From: an uncultured Chloroflexia bacterium
Lineage (GTDB): Bacteria > Chloroflexota > Anaerolineae > Anaerolineales > Anaerolineaceae
Assembly (NCBI GenBank): GCA_963704755.1
Contig: OY969938.1
Coordinates: 2,190,001-2,222,000, forward strand
DNA length: 32,000 nucleotides
Direction: 5' to 3'
Below are positions 15,644-31,168 of this stretch, piece by piece. Both the position numbers and the translations under genes were made by a program. The notes below the pieces were generated by a model. The model ran no database searches. It was not told where the DNA came from and worked only from the letters and a program-made list of their open reading frames with translations. Position 1 is the first letter of the stretch, and each line of letters begins with the position of its first letter.

Positions 15644-16105
15644 TCATTCATCCATTTTTAGCCAGGAATGAACCCAGCCGCCCAGCAACGGGTAACGGAA
15701 TTCGCCCTTTTTGATGGTCTGCCAGCCGCCCACCAGGGCCAGGATGTAGTAGGCCGGCACCACGATCAAGCCAACGAACAAATTGAGCAGAAAAATGAGC
15801 ACGGCCGGGATGTAGAACATTCCGCTCAAGCCCATGTTATTGGTGATCCCCGAGAACATGACGCCGAAAAAGACGGCCCCAAACCAGCCGGCCAGCAAAA
15901 AGAAGATGTAAACCAGGCCCAGGACCACGCCAATCCCCTGGTAGATCAGAGCCTGCAGCGCCTGAAAGCGCAGCCGCGGCGAGCGGTCTTTTTGGGTGAG
16001 GTACACGATCAGGGGAACGATCAGGCCAAAAAAACGCAGCAGCACGCTGAAGTGGCATAAAGCCGCCATCCAGTTATCTTCACGGGTTTCATCGATCTCA
16101 GACAT
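15644..16105 (-). CDS. DUF4870-like small membrane protein
   Basis: 153 aa. N-terminal AALCHFSVLL..GLIVPLIVYLTQKDRSPRLRFQALQALIYQ pattern and 3-4 TM segments. Its ATG overlaps the upstream gene stop by 8 nt (ATGTCTGA). Confidence 0.8.
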   Translation of the reverse strand: MSEIDETREDNWMAALCHFSVLLRFFGLIVPLIVYLTQKDRSPRLRFQALQALIYQGIGVVLGLVYIFFLLAGWFGAVFFGVMFSGITNNMGLSGMFYIPAVLIFLLNLFVGLIVVPAYYILALVGGWQTIKKGEFRYPLLGGWVHSWLKMDE

Positions 16106-16583
16106 CGGCCACCTCCACCGCTGCAGCGGGTGTCCGCAGCAGGTATTTTTCCAGGCGCGGCCCCCAAATGGGGTAATGAAAATTTTTGCCGGTCAGGCAG
16201 AGGATGCCCCCAACCAACCCACCCAGGACGTACAAAGCGCTCATCCCAAAAATGAAGAGGAATCCCAGGGCTTCACCGCCAACGATGACCCAGGGCATGG
16301 CGTTCTGCGAGAGGGTTGCCGTCAGCGCAGCACCCAGGGCAACCATCGCCGCAATGAACCCGACCCCAAGGATGGTCACCAGCCAGTAGAACAGCATAAA
16401 CAAGAGCTGGTAGGCCAACGCCTGTAGAGATTGAAAGGTGGTGTAGGTCGTTTTCTTGCGCTGAGTGACCCAAATCAACAGCGGCACCAGGAACCCAAAC
16501 GGGAGAATGATCGCAGCATGCGCGGCAGCCGCCAGCAGCTTTTCATCGGATGATTCCGGCTGGAACCGAGATGGTTCGTTCAT
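16098..16583 (-). CDS. DUF4870-like small membrane protein (paralog)
   Basis: Trimmed to the ATG at 16583, which has an AGGAGGGG RBS. The product MNEPSRFQPESSDEKLLAAAAHAAIILPFGFLVPLLIWVTQRKKTTYTTFQSLQALAYQ matches the family pattern. The 309-aa ORF-track form overlaps the next gene out of frame. Confidence 0.8.
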   Translation of the reverse strand: MNEPSRFQPESSDEKLLAAAAHAAIILPFGFLVPLLIWVTQRKKTTYTTFQSLQALAYQLLFMLFYWLVTILGVGFIAAMVALGAALTATLSQNAMPWVIVGGEALGFLFIFGMSALYVLGGLVGGILCLTGKNFHYPIWGPRLEKYLLRTPAAAVEVADV

Positions 16584-16606
16584 AACAAATGTCCCCTCCT
16601 TTATAT

Positions 16607-17512
16607 TTACCGTCGGATGTAAAAAAGGTGGCTGCGCTTGCTCAACCACTTTCCCAGAAACGGATACAAATAATCGCGCCCACACAGAAAACGAGCCGTG
16701 GCGACGATGGGCAGCGTTTGAAAGACCGGCACGGCCAGGATGATCACAAAAGCACACAGCAGCGCCAGCAGGCCGAAGATCGCCGTGGCCAACCCGGCCG
16801 CCCCGCCAAATTCGCCCCGGTTGAGCGCCAGGGTGACCCCACCCATGGCCAGCAGCCAGGCCACGCTGATGGTGGCCAACAGTTCCACCACCAACCCGGC
16901 GGCCTGATAAAGGGCCGCCTGCTGGGCCTGGAAGCGCAGAAAAGCGTCCTCGTCCTTGCGCGAAACGTTCCACACCAGGATGCAGCCGGCTAATCCGGAC
17001 AGCCCGTTGAAGAGCCCCAGGTGACACAAGGAAGCCAGGCAGTTCTGCTCGTGTTCGTCCGGCTGTGCGTCCAGGTAGGCGGCCAGCCGGTTACCCAGCC
17101 AGGGGTAGCGGTAGCTGCGCCCCTGCCGGCAGGCAACGCCCGCAGCGATGCCCAGTCCGACGAAAGCCAGGCTGACCAGCAGGTACAGCCCGGCGATGTA
17201 GAGCAGGTACGGCCCCAGCAGCCCGGTCAATGACCGGGGCTCTCCGCCCGGAAACGCCCTGAGTTGTCCATCGACCAGCAGCCAGACCAGTTCGACAATT
17301 GCCAGGATCAGCCCGGCCAGCAGCGCCGCTACCGGCTGGATCACTTGCAGGGCCGCGGCCTGCAACAACTGGAAGCGCAGCCCACCCGAGCGCCGGTGGC
17401 CAATCGTCCACAGGATCAGCGGAGCCAGCAAGCCCAACCCCGGCAGCAGGATCGAAAGATGCCCCAGGAAAGCCAGGCTGCGGTCAGTGGAGGGAAGTGA
17501 GTCAGAATTCAT
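16607..17512 (-). CDS. Membrane protein with two tandem DUF4870-like modules
   Basis: 301 aa. The module signature occurs twice: LAFLGHLSILLPGLGLLAPLILWTIGHRRSGGLRFQLLQAAALQ and LASLCHLGLFNGLSGLAGCILVWNVSRKDEDAFLRFQAQQAALYQ. Confidence 0.8.
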   Translation of the reverse strand: MNSDSLPSTDRSLAFLGHLSILLPGLGLLAPLILWTIGHRRSGGLRFQLLQAAALQVIQPVAALLAGLILAIVELVWLLVDGQLRAFPGGEPRSLTGLLGPYLLYIAGLYLLVSLAFVGLGIAAGVACRQGRSYRYPWLGNRLAAYLDAQPDEHEQNCLASLCHLGLFNGLSGLAGCILVWNVSRKDEDAFLRFQAQQAALYQAAGLVVELLATISVAWLLAMGGVTLALNRGEFGGAAGLATAIFGLLALLCAFVIILAVPVFQTLPIVATARFLCGRDYLYPFLGKWLSKRSHLFYIRR

Positions 17513-20705: not shown

Positions 20706-21443
20706 TCACCCGCCGTTCAAAGCCGCATTGATCGCCTTGGAAATGTCATCGAAGGAGGGGATGTAGTTGGGGCCGGCGCTGCTGACAACCATCTTGCCAT
20801 CCACAAAAATACCGGGAGTGGGCGGCACACCCAGGGCATCACCCGCCGTGACGTCTTTTTGAATCTCAGCGGCATAGGTGTCGGCCGCGAAGCACTTATT
20901 GAAATCGGTCATGTTCAGGCCAATATCCTGGGCAAAGGCGGTCAAACGGTCTTTGGTGTACGAACCGGCATTCTCGCCCAGCCAGTTGGCGAAAGCGATC
21001 GCGTGGAAGTCCCAGAACTTACCCTGCGCTGCCGCGCACATGGCCGCGTTGGCCGCATCGTGCGATTCGCCCTGGCCGCCATCGATGAAGGGATAGAAAT
21101 GGAAGGTGTAATAAACCTTACCGGTATCTACAAAGGTCTGGATGACCTGTGGCTCGAGGCTACGCGAATAGGATAAACAGCCTGAGCATTGAAAATCTTC
21201 CCAAACGTCCATTTTGACCGTCGCATTCGGATCCCCGACACTGGTCTGGTTGACCGGTACAGCGAAAGAAGGCGGTGTGATCTGGACGATCGAACTGGTA
21301 TCCGGACTGGCCGGCTTTTAACTCGTCACAATCAGCACCACTGCGAGCGCTATGGCGACGACCGCCACAGAAAAGATAACGATGAGCCGGTTGCGGCTCT
21401 TTTGTTTTTGAACACGTTTGCGATATTCCTGACGTTTGCTCAT
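20706..21443 (-). pseudogene. Membrane-anchored DsbA-family thiol:disulfide oxidoreductase interrupted by one in-frame TAA
   Basis: The ATG at 21443 encodes MSKRQEYRKRVQKQKSRNRLIVIFSVAVVAIALAVVLIVTS (TM anchor). A TAA follows at 21318-21320. The same frame then continues KPASPDTSSIVQITPPSFAVPVNQTSVGDPNATVKMDVWEDFQCSGC... through the thioredoxin-fold ORF 20706-21212 (CSGC active site). An extended -10 (TGTATAAT; the TATAAT hexamer is the complement of 21491-21496) lies upstream. Confidence 0.7.
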
Positions 21444-21747: not shown

Positions 21748-23049
21748 CTATGATGAGGGGGTCTCCGACTGGGCCGGCTCGGGGGTGTTGCTGGCCAAAT
21801 CGGGGGAAGTGGGGGTCGGCTGCGGACTGGTCGGCGTGGGCGGCGGGCTGGTTGGGGCCACGGTCTCGGTTGGTGCCGCGGTCCAGGCCGGCGGCGTGGG
21901 AGTCGCTACGCTAAAGGTGGCCGTCGCTGCGCCTTCCTGGGTAGCGGTGGGCGTGCGCGTGCCGGTGGGAGGTGCTGTGGGCGTGGCGGGATGATCCCCC
22001 GGCAGAGTCAACATCACCCGGATATCCGGCCCGTACGGACAGGGGCTGCTGCCCGGGCAGGATGGGCTGCCGGGCTGCCAGCCGGTGTAGTTATCGATCC
22101 GCACCTGTACCTGCACCAGGTAGTGCTGGTCGCTTTGGGGAGTGAAAGTCAGGTCGAAGTAGTTGGTCATAACGTCTCCGGCCGGCATGGGCGAAGCGCT
22201 CGACCAATTCCAGGCGCTCGAGACGGCTTGCAGCGGCTGTCCGTTGCTGTCGGCGCTGAAGACCTGGCCTGTCAGGGTCAGTCCTTCGGCCGGCAGAACG
22301 CCGGAATTGAGCAGTTGCAAGTGGCTGGACACGTCCATATCCTGCCCGTTCGGGCCGACCGTGGCGTCTAGCAGTGCCTTGATTTCGGCCCCAGGGATGA
22401 GCGGCGCCGTTGGCGTGGCCAATGACAGGGTCGGCAGCAGGCTCGGGCTGTTGGCATCCAAAACGAATTCCGCTTGCGCGGCGGCGTCGGAATCGCAGGA
22501 GCCCTCGCTGCTGCAATCCGCCGACAAAACCCCAACGGCGGGTACCGCATTGCTGATGCTCACCTGGGCAATGTTGCGATAGCGGGTCACGCCGGCCCGC
22601 GGATTAAAGTCGAATTCGTAAGGGTAGCAGCGCATTCCGCCCGGATCGACCTGCTGATCGGGATTAATGATCTTGCTGGCCCCATCCAATGGTGTGTACA
22701 GGCCGCTCTCGTCCAGGTATTCCACCTGGTCGAGAATATTCAGGCTGCGGGTGCCAAATTCGCCGGTGTTGTGGACGCAAATTTCACCGCGGACCACGGC
22801 CGGCAAATTTTCCGACGCCATCCCGTTGCCTGTTTTCCAATAAGCCATGACCGATTTTTGGGCCTCGATGGTGGTATTGCCCCCGGCATTGGAGCTGTCA
22901 AGCTGGCCGGTGCTCACCTGGCCAGAAGTACCCAACATATGGGCCCACCAGGTATTCGCCACCGGGATCGAGATCAAAGCCACGCCAATCACCACAGCCG
23001 CCACGGCCACGTGCAGATAATGCGTTTGCAAGAAATTCTTCAGGTTCAC
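21748..23049 (-). CDS. Cluster A large secreted protein with SipW-type-like signal motif and Pro/Thr-rich tail (paralog of 26191-27546)
   Basis: The GTG at 23049 overlaps the peptidase stop (GTGA). N-terminal h-region then PVANTWWAHMLGTSGQVSTG. Blocks shared with the paralog: GEICV.NTG, LNILDQ.EYLD.SG.Y.PLDGASK, RYRNIAQVSI.N, VRIDNYTGW.PG.P.CPGS.PCP.GPD.R. The last roughly 85 aa are P/T/A-rich. Confidence 0.8.
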   Translation of the reverse strand: MNLKNFLQTHYLHVAVAAVVIGVALISIPVANTWWAHMLGTSGQVSTGQLDSSNAGGNTTIEAQKSVMAYWKTGNGMASENLPAVVRGEICVHNTGEFGTRSLNILDQVEYLDESGLYTPLDGASKIINPDQQVDPGGMRCYPYEFDFNPRAGVTRYRNIAQVSISNAVPAVGVLSADCSSEGSCDSDAAAQAEFVLDANSPSLLPTLSLATPTAPLIPGAEIKALLDATVGPNGQDMDVSSHLQLLNSGVLPAEGLTLTGQVFSADSNGQPLQAVSSAWNWSSASPMPAGDVMTNYFDLTFTPQSDQHYLVQVQVRIDNYTGWQPGSPSCPGSSPCPYGPDIRVMLTLPGDHPATPTAPPTGTRTPTATQEGAATATFSVATPTPPAWTAAPTETVAPTSPPPTPTSPQPTPTSPDLASNTPEPAQSETPSS

Positions 23050-24269
23050 CGCGCTCCTCGCAACCAATCCAGGAACCAGCGGAAGAGAATACTCACCCAG
23101 CCAATCTTGGGAATCTTCAGGATAACCTTGCCCTCGTATGCAGATGCCGGCACAGGCTCGTCTTCAACGTTGTTGTTATCACCACGGGTGATGAAAGTAA
23201 GCTGCCCGTTGTCATTATAGATCTGCTCGACCCGGTGGACGATTAAATCGCCATCCCGCTGGTAACGGATGATATCGCCGACCTTGACACTGGTCACCGC
23301 CACGTTGCTGGTGACCACCACATCGCCGGCATAGAGAGTTGGATTCATGCTGACCCCGCTCATCAAGAAGGGCCGCACACCGAACAGGCCGGTGTTGAAC
23401 CAGAGCAAAATAATCGCAAATACCGCGACGATGATCCAACCCAGCCAGCTCCCCTGACCGGCCGCCGGTTTTTGATTCGCTGCCGCTGGTTTCGTTTTCG
23501 GGTCGGCAGCCGGCGCGATCCAGATATTCAGGAGCGGGATGGCCAGGGCGGGGATAACCGTCTTGACGAATGCCGTCACCACCCAGGGCAGTTGCGGCAG
23601 GACGGGCGGCAGCCACTCACTTGCCGCCAGGGTAACCCGGTAAATAATAGCCGGCCAGGGCCCTACGGTAAGCACCATAAAAGTGGCCAGCATTTGTTCG
23701 GCCAGGGTGGGCAGGCCGTATTTTCCAACGAATTGGAAAAGACCTGCGACACTACTCACTGACCCAAATTGATTAGCCGGTAAAGCCAGTAAGGTAAAAG
23801 AGAATGAAAACAGGATGAGGGCTAAAAAAGCGTGGCCCTTCCCAAAACATTGTACCAGGAAGGCACGCGTGAATTCAAATGCCAGAATTGGGGTAACCGC
23901 ATAAATCAAATTGCCCAACAAGACCCAGCCGCTGTGGCTGTAGGGCGAGTGGCCGAAGCCATAGATGGCCCCGGCGCCCATCACCGCCAGGCTTTGGACC
24001 AACCCGATCAAAAAGGCGATCAGCAAAAAGCCGGCCTGGACGGTCTGCTTTCCGGCCAGGTAGGTCCAGATGAAGTAAGAAAGCCCGGCCAGCAGCAGCC
24101 ATAAGGCCGGCTGAATGAGATACAGGTCCCAATCAGATGGAAAAACGCCGGGCAGGGCGAAATTAACCAGCACATACACCACCACCAGCTCTAAAACGGC
24201 CAGGATCCACAGCCAGTTGAGCTTCTGGGATCCTGGATGAGGCACAACTCGATTCTCATTCCCAAGCAT
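23046..24269 (-). CDS. Cluster A ER/archaeal-type (SipW-like) signal peptidase I fused to an N-terminal polytopic membrane domain
   Basis: ATG at 24269 with GGAGGA 6 nt upstream. The C-terminal roughly 150 aa carry SGVSMNPTLYAGDVV, IVHRV and TRGDNNNVEDEP (Ser/His S26B-type motifs). The N-terminal roughly 250 aa have about 7 TM helices with a conserved GFGHSPY motif. Confidence 0.85.
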   Translation of the reverse strand: MLGNENRVVPHPGSQKLNWLWILAVLELVVVYVLVNFALPGVFPSDWDLYLIQPALWLLLAGLSYFIWTYLAGKQTVQAGFLLIAFLIGLVQSLAVMGAGAIYGFGHSPYSHSGWVLLGNLIYAVTPILAFEFTRAFLVQCFGKGHAFLALILFSFSFTLLALPANQFGSVSSVAGLFQFVGKYGLPTLAEQMLATFMVLTVGPWPAIIYRVTLAASEWLPPVLPQLPWVVTAFVKTVIPALAIPLLNIWIAPAADPKTKPAAANQKPAAGQGSWLGWIIVAVFAIILLWFNTGLFGVRPFLMSGVSMNPTLYAGDVVVTSNVAVTSVKVGDIIRYQRDGDLIVHRVEQIYNDNGQLTFITRGDNNNVEDEPVPASAYEGKVILKIPKIGWVSILFRWFLDWLRGAR

Positions 24270-24284
24270 TAATATCCTCCCGTT

Positions 24285-24311
24285 GTGGAGGGGGGCCGGG
24301 CTCCCCTCCAC
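24285..24311 (-). promoter_or_regulatory. 9-bp GC hairpin in the gap between the small-protein genes and the peptidase gene (cluster A)
   Basis: gtggagggg-(9 nt)-cccctccac lies directly upstream of the peptidase RBS. There is no U-run. Confidence 0.4.
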
Positions 24312-24325
24312 AGGCTGTTACAGGA

Positions 24326-24937
24326 TCAAGGTGAGGTCAGGGTAGTCAGACAACTTGCATAGTCCATCGGATGGTTCCATTGACTCAGGCAGGAATGCAC
24401 CGAAAACTGGTAATCCGTCAATTCTAGCGCGCCATCGTTGACCTGGACAACCATCTGGCTGCTGGATCCGTCTTGGGGGACGAATTCGCCATGGACGTTG
24501 TCCTTGAAGGTGACGGTGAGCTCGTTGCAGGCAATCGATTTGGTCCCAGTTGTGGGTGAACCTGTTACGGTGCAGCCGGTCAGGTTCCCGGCCGAAATCC
24601 CGTTTCCATTGACGACCCAGGGCAGCGTCCCGGTATTCAGGAAGTCAAAAGTACACTTCACCGAATAGCCGGGGTAGCCGTTGACGATGTTGAAGTGGAT
24701 GGTCGAATGATCCGCCGAGTCAATCGTTACAACCGTTGAACCGATGTCTTGCCCTTCCGGCTCCGTTTCGGTACAGGAATAGCCCGTCCAACTGGCGTCG
24801 AGATTGCCGGTCTGGACGACGCCGCTGACCTGCAACTGGTCGGTCCAGAAGCCATAGGCCAGGCCCATGCCGCCCAGGGTGGCCAGGAGGATCAGCGCTG
24901 CGGTGCCCATTAACCAGTGTGTGGATCGGTTCAACAT
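24326..24937 (-). CDS. Cluster A TasA/camelysin-like small secreted protein 2 (Cys-rich)
   Basis: ATG at 24937 with GAGGAA RBS. Signal region ...LATLGGMGLAYGFWTDQLQVSGVVQTGNLDASW. Core VNGYPGYSVKCTFDFLNTGTLP. Six Cys. Orthologous-looking to the frameshifted 29504-30065. Confidence 0.8.
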   Translation of the reverse strand: MLNRSTHWLMGTAALILLATLGGMGLAYGFWTDQLQVSGVVQTGNLDASWTGYSCTETEPEGQDIGSTVVTIDSADHSTIHFNIVNGYPGYSVKCTFDFLNTGTLPWVVNGNGISAGNLTGCTVTGSPTTGTKSIACNELTVTFKDNVHGEFVPQDGSSSQMVVQVNDGALELTDYQFSVHSCLSQWNHPMDYASCLTTLTSP

Positions 24938-25001
24938 GATGTTCCTCAATTCTTCTTCAAGGTTTTTATGATTCCCTGAAACAAGATCGAATCTGAAGGA
25001 A

Positions 25002-25550
25002 TTACGGGTTAACCTGTACGAAGGTCAGGGTGATGGTTCCAGAATACGATGCCCCTTCGGCTGCAGTGGCCGTTGGAGTAAGGGTGATCTCGCCGGTGAC
25101 CGATGCACCATCTTCAATGACGTCCACATTAGGAGCAGTGAAACCGGGCGCTTCAAAATCAAGGGCGGCCTTGCTTGCCAGGTCCGTCGGGTCAAATACA
25201 ACACTTGACAATTTAACAGGGATGGTGCCATTATTTGCGATGGTGCCGGTCAAGGTGCACGTGTAGCCGGGATAGGCATTCTCGATCAAAACCTCGACGC
25301 GGTCGGAATCATTCGCCTCCGGATCACTGGACTGATCTACAATATTTGCCGAGCAAGTACCGACCTCCTCCATGCCGGCAGTCTCGTTGTCAGTAGCTGT
25401 GACCTCGGTGAAATGGACATTCAACGTCCCGGTTGATGCAGTTCCATGGATCTCAAGGGAATCCGTCCAGGCCCCGTAGGCGATGGCCATGGTGGCCAGC
25501 ACAAACAGCGCCAGCACCGTGATCAACAGAGTTTGCTTTTTTGAAAACAT
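25002..25550 (-). CDS. Cluster A TasA/camelysin-like small secreted protein 1
   Basis: ATG at 25550 with GGAGGA RBS. MFSKKQTLLITVLALFVLATMAIAYGAWTDSLEIHGTASTGTLNVHF. Core ENAYPGYTCTLTGTIANNGTIPVK. Motif spacing matches B. subtilis TasA as I recall it (AAFND..ASGTLDL; LKPGD....FENNGSL). Confidence 0.8.
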   Translation of the reverse strand: MFSKKQTLLITVLALFVLATMAIAYGAWTDSLEIHGTASTGTLNVHFTEVTATDNETAGMEEVGTCSANIVDQSSDPEANDSDRVEVLIENAYPGYTCTLTGTIANNGTIPVKLSSVVFDPTDLASKAALDFEAPGFTAPNVDVIEDGASVTGEITLTPTATAAEGASYSGTITLTFVQVNP

Positions 25551-26003
25551 GATTTAATCCTCCAAAAAAATCTTGTAAAACAGATTGGAGGGTGGCATAA
25601 TCACAGTAGTGTAGGGTGAGTGATTACGCCACCCATGCTAGGGGCCCTGGCAACCTCAATTTGCCGGGGCCTGTTTTTTAATGGTCGGCCCTATCGAAAC
25701 GGATGGATCCCTCCTTTCACCCGCTGCTCTTCCAACTCAGATCCCTCCGAGGAAGAAACACGGATCGAAAACCTCCACTCCCCGGCGGGCCTGATCTGTT
25801 GTGCGCCGTTATGTTGGCCACGCGTTGTATTTTTCTGTGTTATCAGCCGGGATTTCGATTCTGGCCGGTTCTGTTTTTTCGCAAGGCGTTAAAACAAAAA
25901 ACCAGCCACTTTCGTGGCCGGTTTCGCCATTTGCTCTGCGCGAGGTAATTCCCTTATGGAAAGGCGATCCCCCGTTTCCCCCGCGCTTCATCGCATCCAC
26001 GTA
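25551..26003 (-). promoter_or_regulatory. Long (about 453-nt) 5-prime leader of cluster A with conserved structured ends
   Basis: The 5-prime roughly 110 nt (25891-26003) and the 3-prime roughly 120 nt (25551-25675) are near-identical to the cluster B leader, while the middle is diverged. The 3-prime end holds a 15-bp hairpin (25590-25604 / 25620-25634) and an anti-SD CCCTCCAA (complement of 25585-25592) able to pair with the SD (complement of 25558-25565). Confidence 0.6.
25891..26003 (-). ncRNA. Candidate structured RNA element (riboswitch-like leader or small RNA) ending in an intrinsic terminator
   Basis: It starts just downstream of the promoter. Helix GCGCGGGG (complement of 25979-25986) pairs with CCUCGCGC (complement of 25938-25945), and one base pair covaries in the cluster B copy. 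An internal UUCC-loop-GGAA hairpin is present. It ends in CCGGCCAC-GAAA-GUGGCUGG plus U6 (25891-25921). Confidence 0.5.
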
Positions 26004-26010
26004 TAAATTT

Positions 26011-26038
26011 ATTATAGGTATAGATCGCGATTTGTCAA
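26011..26038 (-). promoter_or_regulatory. Near-consensus sigma70 promoter of cluster A
   Basis: On the minus strand: TTGACA (26038-26033), 16-nt spacer, TATAAT (26016-26011). Confidence 0.65.
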
Positions 26039-26190
26039 TAAATTTTGGGGGATTCTAATGTTTTCTGTACCGTCTGGTAACTAAATTTAAACTAATCCGA
26101 ACGGAACCGGACCGGCGTCCGCCGCCAGCAGGCAAAAGTATTTTTTTTGGTATAAATTCCGATAGATTTCTGCAACCGGCCAGGGATCGA

Positions 26191-27546
26191 CTAGCCGGCC
26201 GGTGTGGCCGTCGGCGGGGGCGTCGCTGGGGTAGCGCTTGCCGGCGCCGGTGCAGTCGGCGTGGGCAGCGGATCGGTCGGCGCGGGTGTATCCGTCGGGG
26301 CAGGCGTAGGGTCAGCCGCAGTTGGGCTGGGTGTGACTGGGATATCCGTGGCCGCCTCAGCGGTCGCTGTGGGGCAGACAGTGGTCGCATCCGCGGTCGC
26401 GGTGGGGCTGTCCGCCGGTTGCGGAGGGGTCGGGGTTTCGGCCGGTCCGGCCGGCGTAGGAGCGAGCGTATCCGTCTGGCCGGGCTCCGACGTGGCCGTG
26501 GGAGTTGGGGTCGCCTCTCCCGGCAGGACCAACGCAATGCGCACGTCCGGTCCATTGGGGCAGGGGTCACTGCCCGGGCAGGCCGGGTCGCCCGGCAGCC
26601 AGCCGGTGTAATTGTCGATGCGCACCTGGGCCTGCAACAGGTAATGCTGGCCGGGTTGAGGGCTAAAGTGGATGAGGAAGTAATTATCCAGGGTATCGCC
26701 CGCGTTCAAAGGCGAATCGCTCGACCATTCCCAGGGTTCCGAGACGGCCTGGTCCGGCTTGCCATCCGCACCCGCGCTGAACAGTTGGGCCTTCACCGCC
26801 AAGCCTTCGGCCGGCAGTACGCCGGTATTGTGCAGTTGCAAGTGCCCGGACACATCCAGCCCATCCGCAACCGGGTCGATGTCGGCTTCCAGTTGAGCTT
26901 CGATCTCGGCCGCCGGTACGGAGGTACCCGTAAGGGCTGGGGCGGTGGGAGTCGGCAGCGGGCTCGGGGCAGCCAGCTCGAAATCTGCCTGGGCCATGGC
27001 TCCGTAGGCGCATTCGCCCGCGCTGCCGCAGTCGGCCGACTCGATGCCGGCGGTGGCGTGGTTGCGGATGCTCACCTGGGCGATATTGCGGTACTGTCTT
27101 ATGCTCTCCGGGGGGCGAAATTCGAACTCATACGGGAAGCAGGTTTGCTGGCCGGCCTTGACTTGCTGATCCGGTTGGATATTTTTGCTGGCGCCATCCA
27201 GGGGGACGTATTGGCCGCTCCCGTCCAGGTATTCGAGCTGGTCGAGAATGTTTAATCCCTGGGTGGCATACTTGCCGGTATTGCTGACACAAATTTCTCC
27301 GCTGACCACCGCTGTTCCGGTTTCAGCCGTCCCGTCGGCGCCGGCTTTCCAATGCGCCTTGGCGGATTTTTGCGCCTGAATGGAGGTATTGCCCTGTTGC
27401 GACCAATCGCCGGAAGCCGCACTACCGGTGACCCCCAGTATCTCGGTCCAAAACGCATTCCCGATCGGCAGGGTCACTAACGCGCCTGCGGCCAAAACTA
27501 TCATGGCCAGGATATTCAGCATCCTCTGGCGAATGAACTTTTTCAC
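26191..27546 (-). CDS. Cluster B large secreted protein with SipW-type-like signal motif and Pro/Thr-rich tail
   Basis: The GTG at 27546 overlaps the peptidase stop (GTGA), as in cluster A. N-terminal LPIGNAFWTEILGVTGSAASG. It shares the conserved blocks listed for 21748-23049. The last roughly 110 aa are P/T/A-rich. Confidence 0.8.
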   Translation of the reverse strand: MKKFIRQRMLNILAMIVLAAGALVTLPIGNAFWTEILGVTGSAASGDWSQQGNTSIQAQKSAKAHWKAGADGTAETGTAVVSGEICVSNTGKYATQGLNILDQLEYLDGSGQYVPLDGASKNIQPDQQVKAGQQTCFPYEFEFRPPESIRQYRNIAQVSIRNHATAGIESADCGSAGECAYGAMAQADFELAAPSPLPTPTAPALTGTSVPAAEIEAQLEADIDPVADGLDVSGHLQLHNTGVLPAEGLAVKAQLFSAGADGKPDQAVSEPWEWSSDSPLNAGDTLDNYFLIHFSPQPGQHYLLQAQVRIDNYTGWLPGDPACPGSDPCPNGPDVRIALVLPGEATPTPTATSEPGQTDTLAPTPAGPAETPTPPQPADSPTATADATTVCPTATAEAATDIPVTPSPTAADPTPAPTDTPAPTDPLPTPTAPAPASATPATPPPTATPAG

Positions 27547-28805
27547 AGCAGGCTCCCTACCCACCCCAGCGCCTGGCGCAGGTAAATACTCACCCAGCCA
27601 ATTTTCGGAAGGATCAAAATCACTTTCCCTTCGTACCGGCTGGCCGGGAAGGGATCATCATCGACGTTGTTGTTATCCCCGCGGGTAGTAAAGACGATCT
27701 GCCCGCCCTCGTTTTGAATGGCGACCACCCGGTGGACCACATCGATCGTATCCCGCCGAAAGCGGATGATATCCCCTACCTGGATGGTTGCGGGCGCCAC
27801 CTGGTCGGTGACCACCACGTCGCCGGTGTAAAGGGTGGGGTTCATGCTCGGCCCGCTCATCAGCGAGGGACGAACCCCTAGAAAGCCGGTATTCAACCAG
27901 ATCAAGAGAACCGCGAAAATGCCGGTCAAAATCCAGGCCAGCGGTGAGGCCGGTTCGTTCGCCTTTTTCTTTTTGGCGGCCAGCTTTTCAGCCGGCTTTT
28001 CAACCGGTTTTTCGGCCGGCGTTTCAGCCGCCGGGTCCGGGCGGTTCAAGACCAGCATGCCCAGGACCGGCACCACCACCCCGACCAAGGCCGCGGCCAT
28101 CCAGGGCAAATCCGGCAAGATGGGCGAGAGCCATTCGAAGGCCTGCAACACTCCCCGGTAGGCGATGCTGGCCAATGGGCCGCCCTCGATCACCAGGGAG
28201 GCCGCCAGCATCAATTCGGCCATCGCCGGGAGCAGGGTTTGCCCGGTGACGCTAAAAGCCGTACTTACCTGGCTTAACTGGGCGTACTGGCCCACCGGGA
28301 TCATCAGCGCCAGGGGCAGCAGCCAGGCCAGCAGGAAACCCCAGGGTTGGCTGCTCTTCCCCACCGATTTGCCCAGGTACCAGCGTCCCATCTCGATGCC
28401 GATCAAGCGGGTGCTGAAGAACCACAGGTTGAGCGCCACCATGGTCGCCTGGCGCGCATAGGGCGAATGTCCAAAACCGAGCAGCAGCCCCAGGATCACG
28501 CCAACCGCTAGTTGAATACCGCCCAGCATAAAACCGGTCAGGACTACGTTCCCCTGGATCAGTTTTAGCCCGGAACGGCCATCGACCTTCGTCAGGCCGA
28601 GCGCCAGCAGGGCCAGGGATATCCACACGATCGGCTGGAGGATGTATAAACTGAGGTCCGCCTGAACCACCGCCGGGAAAGCAAAATTAACCAGGACGAA
28701 TACCAGCCCCATCCAGGCCACCAGGATGAGCCAACCAAAACGCTGCAGCGCCGGTTGAATTTCTTCCAGGAAATGATTTGCCTGCCCCGACTTGATTTTG
28801 TCCAT
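27543..28805 (-). CDS. Cluster B SipW-like signal peptidase I fused to an N-terminal polytopic membrane domain
   Basis: ATG at 28805 with GAGGTG 6 nt upstream. SGPSMNPTLYTGDVVV, VVHRV and TRGDNNNVDDDP. N-terminal roughly 7-TM domain with GFGHSPY. A Lys/Pro/Ala-rich linker precedes the peptidase anchor helix. Confidence 0.85.
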   Translation of the reverse strand: MDKIKSGQANHFLEEIQPALQRFGWLILVAWMGLVFVLVNFAFPAVVQADLSLYILQPIVWISLALLALGLTKVDGRSGLKLIQGNVVLTGFMLGGIQLAVGVILGLLLGFGHSPYARQATMVALNLWFFSTRLIGIEMGRWYLGKSVGKSSQPWGFLLAWLLPLALMIPVGQYAQLSQVSTAFSVTGQTLLPAMAELMLAASLVIEGGPLASIAYRGVLQAFEWLSPILPDLPWMAAALVGVVVPVLGMLVLNRPDPAAETPAEKPVEKPAEKLAAKKKKANEPASPLAWILTGIFAVLLIWLNTGFLGVRPSLMSGPSMNPTLYTGDVVVTDQVAPATIQVGDIIRFRRDTIDVVHRVVAIQNEGGQIVFTTRGDNNNVDDDPFPASRYEGKVILILPKIGWVSIYLRQALGWVGSLL

Positions 28806-28844
28806 TAAATCCACCTCGTATTTTGAATCAACGTTCGCTTGGAA

Positions 28845-28874
28845 TAAAAAAGAAAAAGGCGAAGTCTTTCCGCC
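28845..28874 (-). terminator. Terminator/attenuator between the small-protein genes and the peptidase gene (cluster B)
   Basis: On the minus strand: GGCGGAA-agac-TTCGCC followed by TTTTTCTTTTTTATT. Confidence 0.5.
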
Positions 28875-28886
28875 GGATTTACTTTG

Positions 28887-29447
28887 TTAATGTCTCTTGC
28901 TATTTTTTTGTTCCAGTTTCACCTGGATCGAGAAGGGCAAGTCGATTTTCTCTTTGACCTGGGCTCCCAGGGTCAGGGTCACATGGATTTTCGACCAGCA
29001 CGAAGACGGCAATCGGGAAGGATTCTTGCCCCAGGCGGGGGTAGAACCACAGGGCTGGATGACCTTACCCTGCATCCCTGGACCCTCGACCGCCGTAAGG
29101 ATCAGATCGTGCGGACTACGGTTGATCAGGTTAATTTGATCCACGCCAATCGGAAATTGGCCGGTATTGGCAAAATAAAGGTCGCACTGCAACTGGTAGC
29201 CCGGGTAGGCATTTTCGACCTGGATTCCCAGCGATTTGGCCCCCTGCCTGGAAGAAACCAGCCCCACATCCCAACTGGCCAGCGTGCCGGGCTGGGAAAT
29301 CGAACAAGTCCGGTAAAACCAGACCGCATCGCCCCGGCCCGGATCCAAATTTATACAGGCGTCGGCGGGCTGTGTTTTGAACAGGGTGAGCCCCACGGCG
29401 AGCAGAATAACGATCACAGACAGAAGCGGCAAGAATTTTATGTGCAT
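28887..29447 (-). CDS. Cluster B divergent small protein with the NAYPGY core but no AYGxW signal motif
   Basis: 186 aa. N-terminal anchor MHIKFLPLLSVIVILLAVGLTLF. Core ENAYPGYQLQCDLYFANTGQFPIGV. No obvious SD. No counterpart in cluster A. Confidence 0.65.
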   Translation of the reverse strand: MHIKFLPLLSVIVILLAVGLTLFKTQPADACINLDPGRGDAVWFYRTCSISQPGTLASWDVGLVSSRQGAKSLGIQVENAYPGYQLQCDLYFANTGQFPIGVDQINLINRSPHDLILTAVEGPGMQGKVIQPCGSTPAWGKNPSRLPSSCWSKIHVTLTLGAQVKEKIDLPFSIQVKLEQKNSKRH

Positions 29448-29470
29448 TTTCGGTAAATGGAATAAGCTCG

Positions 29471-29499
29471 AAAAAGGGGGTAATTCCTTACCCCCTTTT
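29471..29499. terminator. Hairpin with flanking A/T runs after the frameshifted paralog
   Basis: aaaaa-gggggtaa-ttcc-ttaccccc-tttt. It can act on either strand. Confidence 0.5.
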
Positions 29500-29503
29500 C
29501 AAA

Positions 29504-30065
29504 TTACCGGCAACTGCTCGCATTCGCTTGCTCGAAGGTGTAATGAATGGCAAAGGTGTAAGAAGCGTTTGTTTCAGCCTGGTCCAATACGGTGACCCGC
29601 ATGTTAGAGCCTTCACTGCCGCCCGGGTTGAATTTGGTGCACAACCCATCTGTCCAAACGACCTTAAGCTGGTCGCAGGTGGCGGTGAAAGTGCCGGTGG
29701 ACATGTCCTCCGGATCGACGACACAACCGGTCAGGTTGCCCTGGTTGAAATCGATATCGTCCAGGTAGACAGGGATCGTCCCGCCAACCTTGAAGTCGGC
29801 TAAGCAGTAGCCCAGGTAGCCGGGATAGGCATTATCTACCGTGACCTGAATGGTGTGCGGATCGGTCTGGCTGCTGCTGATCGTCGCGTATGGCTCGTTA
29901 TCCCCGCAGAAATGATCGATCCAGGCCGCATCGACTTCGCCGGTGGTGACTGTGCCCTGAACAGACAGCGAATTCGGCCCATACGCCATAGGCGACCCCC
30001 AATGTCAGCAGAACCACAACTAACACCAGAGCGGATATCGTTGCCATGCTTTTTGAAATTCTCAT
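29504..30065 (-). pseudogene. Cluster B TasA/camelysin-like small protein 2, disrupted by a 1-nt frameshift
   Basis: The ATG at 30065 (AAGGAG RBS) encodes MRISKSMATISALVLVVVLLTLGVAYGVWAE. The mature part SLSVQGTVTTGEVDAAW...DNAYPGYLGYCLADFKVGGTIP continues in another frame (ORF 29504-29989). The span is 562 nt, i.e. 3n+1. The shift maps to 29969-29972. Confidence 0.7.
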
Positions 30066-30080
30066 ATCCGGCTCCTTGGT

Positions 30081-30114
30081 GAAAAGATCGGGGAGGCAGG
30101 TATCCACCTCCCCG
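30081..30114 (-). terminator. Terminator/attenuator after the first small-protein gene (cluster B)
   Basis: On the minus strand: CGGGGAGG-(10 nt)-CCTCCCCG followed by ATCTTTTC. Confidence 0.5.
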
Positions 30115-30139
30115 GTCTTTCCTTTATCGTGTCAAACTA

Positions 30140-30673
30140 CTACGGAACAGCCTGCTCGGCCAGCAAAGTGTAGGTGAAGCTGTAACTTTCGTCCATGTGG
30201 CCGGTTTCGGTCGCCGGGATGGTGAAGTTCCAATAAATCCCGCCGCCATAAGTTGCAGCAGCTAAAACGTAATTGCCGCTGGTGCTGATCTGGTTGCCCT
30301 TGGCGTCGGTCAAATACATGGAGAAGAATGGAATTGTGTCCGAAGATGTTTTGACCAATCCGTGGACCTTGGCCGGGATGGAGCTCAAATTATCGATCGC
30401 CGATCCGCCTTCGCAGAAATATCCAGGGTAGCCATTGGAAATGGTGACGGTAATGTCATGGCCGTCTTCCGATAATTGGGCCGCACAGGTCGCCACGCCC
30501 TGGGCATCATCATCGTACCAAAGCGGCATGAATTTGACATCGAAACTGCCGGTGTGGACCGTACCGCCGACGGTGAGGGTCTGTGACCAGGCACCGTAGG
30601 TCAGTCCGAGGGAGGCCAGGCCGATCAGCAGCACAAAGGCCAGGGTGATATGTAAAGTTTTCTTGGAAAACAT
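30140..30673 (-). CDS. Cluster B TasA/camelysin-like small secreted protein 1
   Basis: Trimmed to the ATG at 30673 (GGAGGA RBS). MFSKKTLHITLAFVLLIGLASLGLTYGAWSQTLTVGGTVHTGSFDVKF. Core SNGYPGYFCEGGSAIDNLSSIP. The ORF-track N-terminal extension runs into the leader. Confidence 0.8.
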   Translation of the reverse strand: MFSKKTLHITLAFVLLIGLASLGLTYGAWSQTLTVGGTVHTGSFDVKFMPLWYDDDAQGVATCAAQLSEDGHDITVTISNGYPGYFCEGGSAIDNLSSIPAKVHGLVKTSSDTIPFFSMYLTDAKGNQISTSGNYVLAAATYGGGIYWNFTIPATETGHMDESYSFTYTLLAEQAVP

Positions 30674-31134
30674 GATTAAATCCTCCAGAATAAATGTATT
30701 GTAAAAAGATTTGGAGGGTGGCATAATCACTACAGTGATGCGGTGATGCGATTGCGCCACCCATGTTACCGGCCCTGGCAACCTCAACTTGCCAGGGTCC
30801 CTTTTTTGTCGGCCAGCTTTCCAGTCGAGTAGATCTCCTCTCCTTCCCCGTGGTTCTTCCAGCGCGAACTACTCCGTGGGAGGTACCCGGATTGAACTCC
30901 GCGCTACCAGGCGTGGAAAATGACCCGATCCACACCGGTAGTTTGGCTGTTTGTGCAATTTTGCTTATTTCCGTGCTGAGAGTTTCTGCTCTGGCCGGTT
31001 TTTTCGCTTCGATGCGATTAAAATAAAAAACCAGCCACTTTCGTGGCCGGTTTCGCCATTTGCTCTGTGCGAGGTAATTCCTCTTCGGAAAGGCGATCCC
31101 CCATGTCCCCCGCACTTCATCGCATCCACGTTAT
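30674..31134 (-). promoter_or_regulatory. Long (about 461-nt) 5-prime leader of cluster B, including the second copy of the structured element (31021-31134)
   Basis: Same conserved ends as the cluster A leader. Terminator hairpin 31031-31050 plus U-run 31021-30. Helix GUGCGGGG (complement of 31108-31115) pairs with CCUCGCAC (complement of 31067-31074). Anti-SD CCCTCCAAA faces SD CTGGAGGA. Confidence 0.6.
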
Positions 31135-31140
31135 GAAATC

Positions 31141-31168
31141 ATTATATAAGATTTATTGAAATTGTCAA
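31141..31168 (-). promoter_or_regulatory. Near-consensus sigma70 promoter of cluster B
   Basis: On the minus strand: TTGACA (31168-31163), 16-nt spacer, TATAAT (31146-31141). It sits in a roughly 250-bp AT-rich divergent region. Confidence 0.65.

Follow-up and report, generated by a model that had tools for sequence, protein, structure and literature searches.

The question raised by this locus is what two adjacent sets of secreted-protein genes, each accompanied by its own signal peptidase, serve to build and how their expression is controlled. The locus lies in a 32,000-nucleotide (nt) stretch of the genome of an uncultured Chloroflexia bacterium (assembly GCA_963704755.1, contig OY969938.1, positions 2,190,001 to 2,222,000), hereafter the window, whose numbering is used throughout. 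There, nine open reading frames (ORFs), all on the minus strand, form two collinear modules, A and B. We consider it likely that each module is an extracellular matrix-fibre operon of the AbpX type, within the TasA superfamily, under the direct control of a second messenger. Gene content, family assignments, the class and fold of a riboswitch, the overlap of its aptamer with a terminator, and synteny are shown here directly.

Organisation of the two modules

Module A contains, from 5' to 3', sA1, sA2, pepA and bigA, and module B sB1, sB2, sB3, pepB and bigB. Each is preceded by a TTGACA-16-TATAAT promoter (26011..26038 for module A and 31141..31168 for module B, both minus strand) matching the sigma-70 consensus at 12/12 positions, and these are the only two such sites in the 10 kb scanned. 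The leaders, about 455 nt long, end at the ATGs at 25550 (module A) and 30673 (module B). They are 84% identical overall and about 95% identical across their first 170 nt, and are better conserved between modules than the proteins (43% identity for pepA/pepB, 50% for bigA/bigB). The duplication is therefore real and old.

An earlier note on this DNA, made from the letters alone, had described these matching modules, promoters and leaders and an old duplication, all of which are confirmed here, as is the overlap of the GTG start of each large protein with the peptidase stop as GTGA (23049..23046 and 27546..27543). Other parts of that description need amendment. The N(A/G)YPGY core is indeed found in the five small proteins, whereas the AYGxW..TGxL motif is found in four of them (it is absent from sB3) and one gene, sB2, is frameshifted. 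The SMNP, HRV and GDNN motifs are present in both peptidases, which have ten helices instead of the seven or so transmembrane (TM) segments proposed. The lengths of 434 and 452 given for the large proteins are codon counts that include the stop.

Small secreted subunits

Neither the small nor the large proteins gave any match above threshold in Pfam or NCBIfam. We compared profile A2, which consists of the five small proteins of the window (sA1 being the first sequence) and ten database relatives, with PDB sequences. The profile matched AbpX of Pyrodictium abyssi (9sj2_C, E=1.2e-14, profile positions 29-155 aligned to chain residues 2-138) and 9rhp_A (E=1.5e-9), whereas the TasA chains 5of1/8aur were marginal (E ~0.025). 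Remote homology to TasA/camelysin was found at the superfamily level, the small proteins aligning by hhalign with the Peptidase_M73 protein of a related locus (L001) with 93% probability and E=2.6e-7. By this sequence comparison the small proteins belong to the TasA superfamily and, within it, to the AbpX clade. Moreover, the mature N-terminus of AbpX, WSETLSLSATISTGSLDVD, aligned residue for residue with (A)WTDSLEIHGTASTGTLNV (AbpX W2-SETLSLS).

The predicted donor-strand residues, Trp at mature position 2 and Asp/Glu at position 4, are present as AWTD in sA1, FWTD in sA2 and VWAE in the repaired sB2. As reported for the AbpX clade, the mature forms of sA1, sA2, sB1 and sB2 have a low isoelectric point (pI of 4.05-4.25, with 10-15% Asp+Glu). 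On the minus strand, sA1 (25002..25550, 182 amino acids (aa), predicted mature N-terminus AWTDSLEI, pI 4.05) is probably the major subunit of module A, and sB1 (30140..30673, 177 aa, predicted mature N-terminus AWSQTLTV, pI 4.25), also included in alignment A2, is probably that of module B. The AbpX-like sA2 (24326..24949, minus, 203 aa from the ATG at 24937) has a predicted mature N-terminus FWTDQLQV and six cysteines, and is classified as a minor subunit.

The AbpX-like gene sB2 (29504..30065, minus) carries a +1 frameshift at GAATTCG (29975..29969), which places its signal peptide and its mature part in separate frames; the gene is otherwise intact and deleting one T brings back AYG|VWAESLSVQGTVTTG. 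This corresponds either to a pseudogene or to an assembly error in a short homopolymer. Finally, the divergent subunit sB3 (28887..29447, minus) is basic (pI 8.6) and encloses the NAYPGY core without the AYGxW donor motif. Its orthologue adjoins the peptidase gene in another locus (L003, 7459-7983). These two proteins define a conserved basic NAYPGY subfamily in which a distinct N-terminal motif (AVWFYRTC / AAWFFRSC) replaces AYGxW.

Riboswitch and terminators in the leaders

Both leaders begin, at the predicted transcription start, with an aptamer of the cyclic diguanylate (c-di-GMP)-II class (aptamer A, 25907..26007; aptamer B, 31036..31136; both minus). The two aptamers passed the gathering threshold of RF03169, the c-di-GMP-II-GAG variant (49.4 and 46.5 bits for a threshold of 40 bits). 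With RF01786, the c-di-GMP-II model of the same clan (CL00127), they scored 47.8 bits (E=2e-9) and 46.1 bits (E=6e-9), below the threshold of 53.5 bits. They have an enlarged P3 loop, and the two strands of the pseudoknot are complementary (UCGCC loop with GGCGA). A covariance model was built from four aptamer copies and, with 68 metagenomic loci retrieved by a 20-base pattern, led to 89 aptamers, in which 92.3% of the cells are paired compared with 34-45% in slid controls. Compensatory changes affect 14 of the 16 base pairs, and helices P1-P3 have covariation support in 82 distinct relatives.

The 3' end of each aptamer overlaps an intrinsic terminator (terminator A, 25898..25925; terminator B, 31027..31054; both minus), the latter, an expression platform, having a 12-bp stem, a GAAA loop and a T-run. 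The aptamer 3' strand GAAACCGGCCAC doubles as the 5' arm of the 12-bp terminator, which is followed by the T-run, and it is the terminator that forms in the minimum-energy fold without ligand. Termination should thus be prevented once the ligand binds, and we infer an ON switch. The earlier note had rightly seen the leaders as duplicated and structured; it had not recognised them as c-di-GMP-II-class riboswitches with terminators, which are the most informative feature of the locus.

Concerning the ligand, the stretch that defines the variants reads GGCGAAACC in the window aptamers, in two related loci (L018 and L019) and in all 89 aligned relatives, to be compared with GGUGCAACC in the canonical RF01786 consensus and GGCGAGACC in the RF03169 GAG consensus. 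GAG is not found at the variant-defining triplet of the window aptamers. The canonical C is replaced by an A that pairs in the pseudoknot with the U of UCGCC, and the residue after it, A, is that of the canonical class; because of these two features c-di-GMP appears to be the favoured ligand, with a putative canonical binding site (GAA, the middle A pairing in the pseudoknot).

The final 150 nt or so of each leader form three hairpins (A, 25551..25700, minimum free energy -55.3 kcal/mol, z = -4.3; B, 30674..30833, conserved with leader A; both minus), in which CCUCCAA/UUGGAGG in leader A and CCUCCA/UGGAGG in leader B cover the Shine-Dalgarno sequence. A related version is found in one metagenomic locus (L101) and none in the Thermanaerothrix daxensis group. 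The candidate of a universal second RNA element was rejected on its weak consensus fold (-5.3 kcal/mol), and as the 3' leader is conserved within the lineage only, no additional RNA family is proposed.

Antisense to both 3' leaders, the plus strand (25573-25682 and 30699-30809) carries a promoter-like TTGTAA-17-CATAAT with an upstream TG, then a terminator-like hairpin of 11-12 bp and a T-run. This element, kept in both copies, could encode a short antisense RNA.

A ten-helix signal peptidase

The peptidases pepA (23046..24311, minus; its database copy starts at 24269 and has 407 aa) and pepB (27543..28814, minus) both passed the cut-off (51.85 bits) of TIGR02228, the archaeal/endoplasmic reticulum (ER)-type signal peptidase I model, with 83.2 and 81.4 bits respectively. 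Residues S321, H359, D378 and D384 are invariant across 44 peptidase homologues. The Pfam and NCBIfam matches are confined to the C-terminal part. The AlphaFold2 model of pepA (predicted local distance difference test (pLDDT) score of 87) comprises eight helices (30-52, 59-86, 93-117, 128-156, 161-182, 188-215, 218-233 and 243-265), an anchor helix (289-307), the catalytic beta domain and a C-terminal helix (405-420), ten helices in all. In Foldseek searches the catalytic domain was nearest to human SEC11A/C, and the membrane domain had no significant match in the PDB, all matches being confined to the catalytic domain.

A scan of GTDB genomes retrieved 541 relatives of the peptidase, in Chloroflexota, Bacillota and several archaeal phyla, the closest representative being 41% identical. 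The eight-helix N-terminal domain has no relative in Pfam, NCBIfam or the PDB; nevertheless its intramembrane E146 and R149 are invariant in bacteria and archaea, together with several Pro and Gly residues. AbpX-associated signal peptidases I "in bacteria and archaea" have already been reported in a preprint to have ten TM helices (bioRxiv 10.64898/2026.01.04.697558, January 2026). A polytopic peptidase with accessory subunits is therefore the published norm for the AbpX clade and not an oddity, and the non-canonical character attributed to it by the earlier note is abandoned. The eight-helix domain could play, within one chain, the part that accessory subunits have in the eukaryotic signal peptidase complex (SPC), or be a platform passing cleaved subunits to the fibre. 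That it is a novel substrate-selecting or assembly-coupling module, beyond a passive anchor, in an operon acting as a self-contained second-messenger-gated fibre machine, seems to us doubtful.

The large Pro/Thr-tailed partner

The peptidase genes overlap those of bigA (21748..23049, minus, 433 aa) and bigB (26191..27546, minus), in which an AbpX-type signal and donor strand precede two beta-sandwich domains and a Pro/Thr-rich tail. bigB also contains a Cys-rich GWxPGxxxCPGxxPCPxGP motif. No Pfam match was found for either protein and the profile of the large partners gave nothing meaningful against PDB sequences. The possibility that the partner body is a diverged AbpX subunit was rejected, since hhalign aligned the partner with the subunit family over residues 13-52 only, that is the signal and donor strand. 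Foldseek searches with the bigA model gave just generic tandem immunoglobulin/fibronectin type III matches with low TM-scores.

An exhaustive search with the partner profile retrieved 404 representative proteins at E<=1e-3, most of which have the first domain (profile ~80-168) in common, frequently as multiple copies. In T. daxensis and other loci, shorter orthologues are encoded after the peptidase, again with this overlapping start, and keep both the GWxPGxxxCPGxxPCPxGP motif and the Pro/Thr-rich tail. We tentatively propose, by analogy, that the partner may be a terminal or anchoring subunit, because SLH and LPXTG anchors and tip proteins at AbpX loci, and TapA, serve as analogues; this is the weakest step of our model. 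The conserved Pro/Thr-tailed family would thus be a candidate anchor in bacteria without SLH or LPXTG systems.

Distribution in other genomes

The survey of gene neighbourhoods suggested by the earlier note revealed conserved peptidase-subunit synteny across many genomes. One or more small subunits, then the peptidase, then the overlapping partner is also the gene order of L001, L006, L007, L018, L019, L111 and L158 (our locus numbers). L018 is the cultured species T. daxensis GNS-1, in which the complete riboswitch-abpX-peptidase-partner unit is present, as it is in several metagenomic Chloroflexota. On the coding strand upstream of related operons we found class II aptamers (L018, L019, L017 and L011, and the metagenomic L101, L111, L153 and L158) and class I-GGC aptamers (L003 and L013). 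In L017 the aptamer is directly 5' of a gene for an HExxH protein and of a small signal peptidase, and an abpX-like gene and a polytopic peptidase are located about 2.7 kb further downstream. The AbpX-linked aptamers group tightly together and score high, with 102-116 bits apart from L101 (56.6 bits), and all lie 430-480 nt before the first subunit gene. No aptamer was detected in the Bacillota loci L004, L046, L054 and L059 (0/4) by the Rfam scan, nor in any archaeal or Bacillota locus scanned with the class II covariance model.

We considered whether this riboswitch subtype is specific to AbpX and rejected it, as abpX and the peptidase follow 4 of the ~34 metagenomic copies with at least 1.5 kb of downstream sequence. 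Secreted proteins, glycosyltransferases, regulators and a TasA-like protein are encoded behind most of the others, as expected of a typical c-di-GMP regulon.

Two further arrangements were seen in this survey. Tandem arrays of three to four aptamers of the same subtype occur in metagenomic loci (L120, L151, L144, L115 and L113). In L013 (3889-8164) and L001 (751-5859), a canonical TasA/Peptidase_M73 gene and a small SipW-like peptidase are found directly upstream of abpX-like and ten-helix-peptidase genes. In L013 the whole TasA and abpX block is behind the c-di-GMP-I-GGC aptamer, and the two TasA-superfamily systems appear to be co-regulated.

Comparison with known systems

AbpX polymerises by Ca2+-dependent donor-strand complementation; proteins of its clade have a pI of about 4 with a high Asp/Glu content, and AbpX-type loci are described in Archaea, Bacillota and Chloroflexota, with SLH and LPXTG anchors and tip proteins and a link to c-di-GMP enzymes (10.64898/2026.01.04.697558). 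The word riboswitch is absent from the main text of that preprint. Like the AbpX loci (P. abyssi; PDB 9sj2 and 9rhp), the modules of the window encode homologous low-pI subunits that share the donor-strand signature, a co-located ten-TM signal peptidase of the TIGR02228 type, minor subunits and a putative terminal/anchor protein with a donor strand. They differ from them by control in cis through a c-di-GMP-II-class riboswitch, by a partner whose Pro/Thr-rich tail takes the place of SLH or LPXTG, by the absence of a DUF5305 accessory gene and by the tandem duplication of the operon.

In Bacillus subtilis, the accessory protein TapA uses a donor-strand-like N-terminus (PMC9674648, PMC10151520). 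The window modules and tapA-sipW-tasA thus share the combination of an ER-type signal peptidase, a TasA-superfamily subunit and a donor-strand accessory protein; however, SipW has about two TM helices, the window peptidases miss the SipW model and the subunits fail Peptidase_M73. The Bacillus operon is regulated by the repressor SinR and not by a riboswitch. The haloarchaeal Tafi bundling pili are also donor-strand filaments of the TasA superfamily, whose loci include a signal peptidase, a tip/adhesin and a membrane anchor (PMC12337348). Unlike the window system, they are Tat-exported, belong to another subfamily and are restricted to archaea.

For the leaders, the comparison is with the c-di-GMP-II riboswitches (RF01786), which have the same P1-P3 and pseudoknot fold and the same aptamer-terminator arrangement. 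One example, in Clostridioides difficile, is an ON switch preceding the type IV pilin gene pilA1; in the window, too, a surface fibre would be turned on at high c-di-GMP. The window aptamers differ from the canonical class by their sub-threshold score, their enlarged P3 loop and their pseudoknot strand (GGCGA versus GGUGC), and from the pilA1 case by the Chloroflexota host and by the regulation of TasA-superfamily fibres and not of type IV pili. The peptidase shares with the eukaryotic SPC (SEC11A/C, SPC12, SPC22/23 and SPC25; PDB 7p2p and 7p2q) the structurally closest catalytic domain, its Ser-His-Asp chemistry and a catalytic part embedded in a larger membrane assembly. In the window, by contrast, the extra helices are fused in one chain and have no detectable similarity to the SPC accessory subunits.

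Proposed mechanism

We infer the ligand, the ON logic, the cleavage site, the polymerisation and the anchor and cap roles in the following model. Briefly, a strong sigma-70-type promoter would fire straight into the c-di-GMP-II-class aptamer. Without ligand, the aptamer 3' strand AACCGGCCAC would pair into the terminator and transcription would stop after about 110 nt; when the ligand, most likely c-di-GMP, is bound, this strand would be kept by P1 and the pseudoknot, and RNA polymerase would read through. A further ~330 nt of leader would follow, in which the hairpins covering the Shine-Dalgarno sequence are maybe a second checkpoint. The products would be exported by Sec and cut after AYG by the operon's own Ser-His-Asp ten-helix signal peptidase, freeing an N-terminal donor strand with an aromatic residue at mature position 2 and Asp/Glu at position 4. 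The acidic subunits (pI ~4) would then polymerise by donor-strand complementation, probably aided by Ca2+, as for P. abyssi AbpX. The large partner, which has the same signal and donor strand on an unrelated two-domain body, would plug the acceptor groove left free at one fibre end and tie the fibre to the cell envelope, and sB3, which has the subunit core and no donor motif, may cap the opposite end.

Three aspects appear to be new: the control by a c-di-GMP-II-class riboswitch, kept as a unit in Anaerolineae-like genomes; the conserved Pro/Thr-tailed partner found where SLH or LPXTG anchors would be; and the tandem, anciently diverged duplication with near-identical riboswitches. Our literature search found no paper linking c-di-GMP riboswitches to TasA, SipW or camelysin genes, nor c-di-GMP-II to Chloroflexi. 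Anaerobic digesters, granules and sediments harbour abundant filamentous Anaerolineae, and how these build their matrix is poorly understood. The locus offers a complete, testable circuit in which c-di-GMP would act through a riboswitch on the production of a TasA-superfamily fibre and of its dedicated processing enzyme, and the presence of the unit in cultured T. daxensis GNS-1 allows direct testing. AbpX loci, so far tied just to nearby c-di-GMP enzymes, gain a direct connection at the RNA level, and a widespread c-di-GMP-II subtype, under-scored by the canonical Rfam model, is flagged.

Alternative explanations

The earlier note regarded the modules as bona fide SipW/TasA (camelysin family) operons whose architecture would be a novel departure from the Bacillus paradigm. 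We consider this highly improbable, even though TasA structures are among the profile matches, the SipW model is the second-best NCBIfam match of the peptidase and TIGR04088, the SipW-cognate signal peptide model, weakly matches sB1 alone (13.8 bits for a cut-off of 19 bits). Indeed, Pfam PF12389 (Peptidase_M73) had no match at E<=1 in any of the five window proteins and, among 15 family members, its best value was E=0.12 in one of them, the gathering threshold being unreached. The SipW equivalog NF046067 gave 47.9 and 46.9 bits for the two peptidases against a cut-off of 190. AbpX is a far stronger match, the relative E-values pointing to the AbpX cluster, and the polytopic peptidase with accessory subunits is known for AbpX loci and widespread. 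The camelysin family assignment is therefore replaced by the AbpX clade, whereas the broader proposal, a TasA-like system in which secreted fibres have a dedicated signal peptidase, is upheld by the AbpX match, the TIGR02228 score and the conserved synteny. Within this clade, the small proteins might instead be surface-layer, sheath or monomeric surface proteins, with the peptidase as their leader peptidase and no donor-strand fibre. AbpX itself makes para-crystalline lattices, Anaerolineae are known to be filamentous, and we found no report of polymerisation by bacterial AbpX homologues. Such an explanation is quite improbable given that the donor strand is kept (Trp at position 2, Asp/Glu at 4), aligns directly with that of AbpX and is matched by those of the minor and partner subunits.

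It is unlikely that the leaders belong to a specificity variant of the c-di-GMP-II fold which responds to another cyclic dinucleotide or related nucleotide, leaving the operons outside c-di-GMP control. This would agree with the RF03169 threshold being passed and the canonical one not, and with the c-di-GMP-I-GGC variant, not canonical class I, of the L003 and L013 operons. In the diagnostic stretch, GGCGA-AACC, the residue unlike the canonical consensus nevertheless pairs with the pseudoknot loop U, the position turned to G in the named variants (GAG, GCG) is A as in the canonical class, and the downstream gene sets resemble a c-di-GMP regulon. Module B may also be a decaying duplicate, module A alone being functional; the promoter, riboswitch, terminator, peptidase catalytic residues and partner of module B are intact, the leaders are better conserved than the proteins, and errors of one T in a short run are common in long-read assemblies, which makes this rather unlikely despite the sB2 frameshift and the lack of an acidic residue at mature position 4 of sB1. 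Several points weigh against AbpX-type fibre operons controlled by c-di-GMP. Module B is maybe partly decayed, as its sB2 is frameshifted; sB1 has Gln at mature position 4 (AWSQ) and sB3 has no donor motif. The jelly-roll fold of the small subunits is predicted through homology to AbpX, and their export, cleavage after AYG and polymerisation are predictions from sequence, as is the binding of the ligand. Both aptamers miss the RF01786 threshold, the putative canonical site is argued from Rfam consensus sequences only, and we know of no established ligand for the RF03169 GAG variant. The model of bigA, with its two beta-sandwich domains and disordered Pro/Thr-rich tail, has a low confidence (pLDDT 56), and bigA contains no SLH, LPXTG or C-terminal TM anchoring motif.

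Other features of the window

An intercistronic hairpin is located 3' of sB1 (30089..30114, minus; 11 bp, of which 8 are G-C, then a T-rich tail), and a second strong one with a T-rich tail is found 3' of sB2 (~29470-29497, minus). They may attenuate transcription beyond the gene of the major subunit, an arrangement known from many pilus operons. Module A is immediately followed by a DsbA/Thioredoxin_4 gene (20706-21212, minus), for which a disulfide role is conceivable as the secreted subunits and partners contain 2-7 cysteines. Elsewhere in the window, a 733-aa protein (467-2668, plus) has both a trypsin-like peptidase domain and a domain of the non-specific DNA/RNA endonucleases, and three adjacent or overlapping ORFs (15644-17512, minus) each contain a DUF4870 domain.

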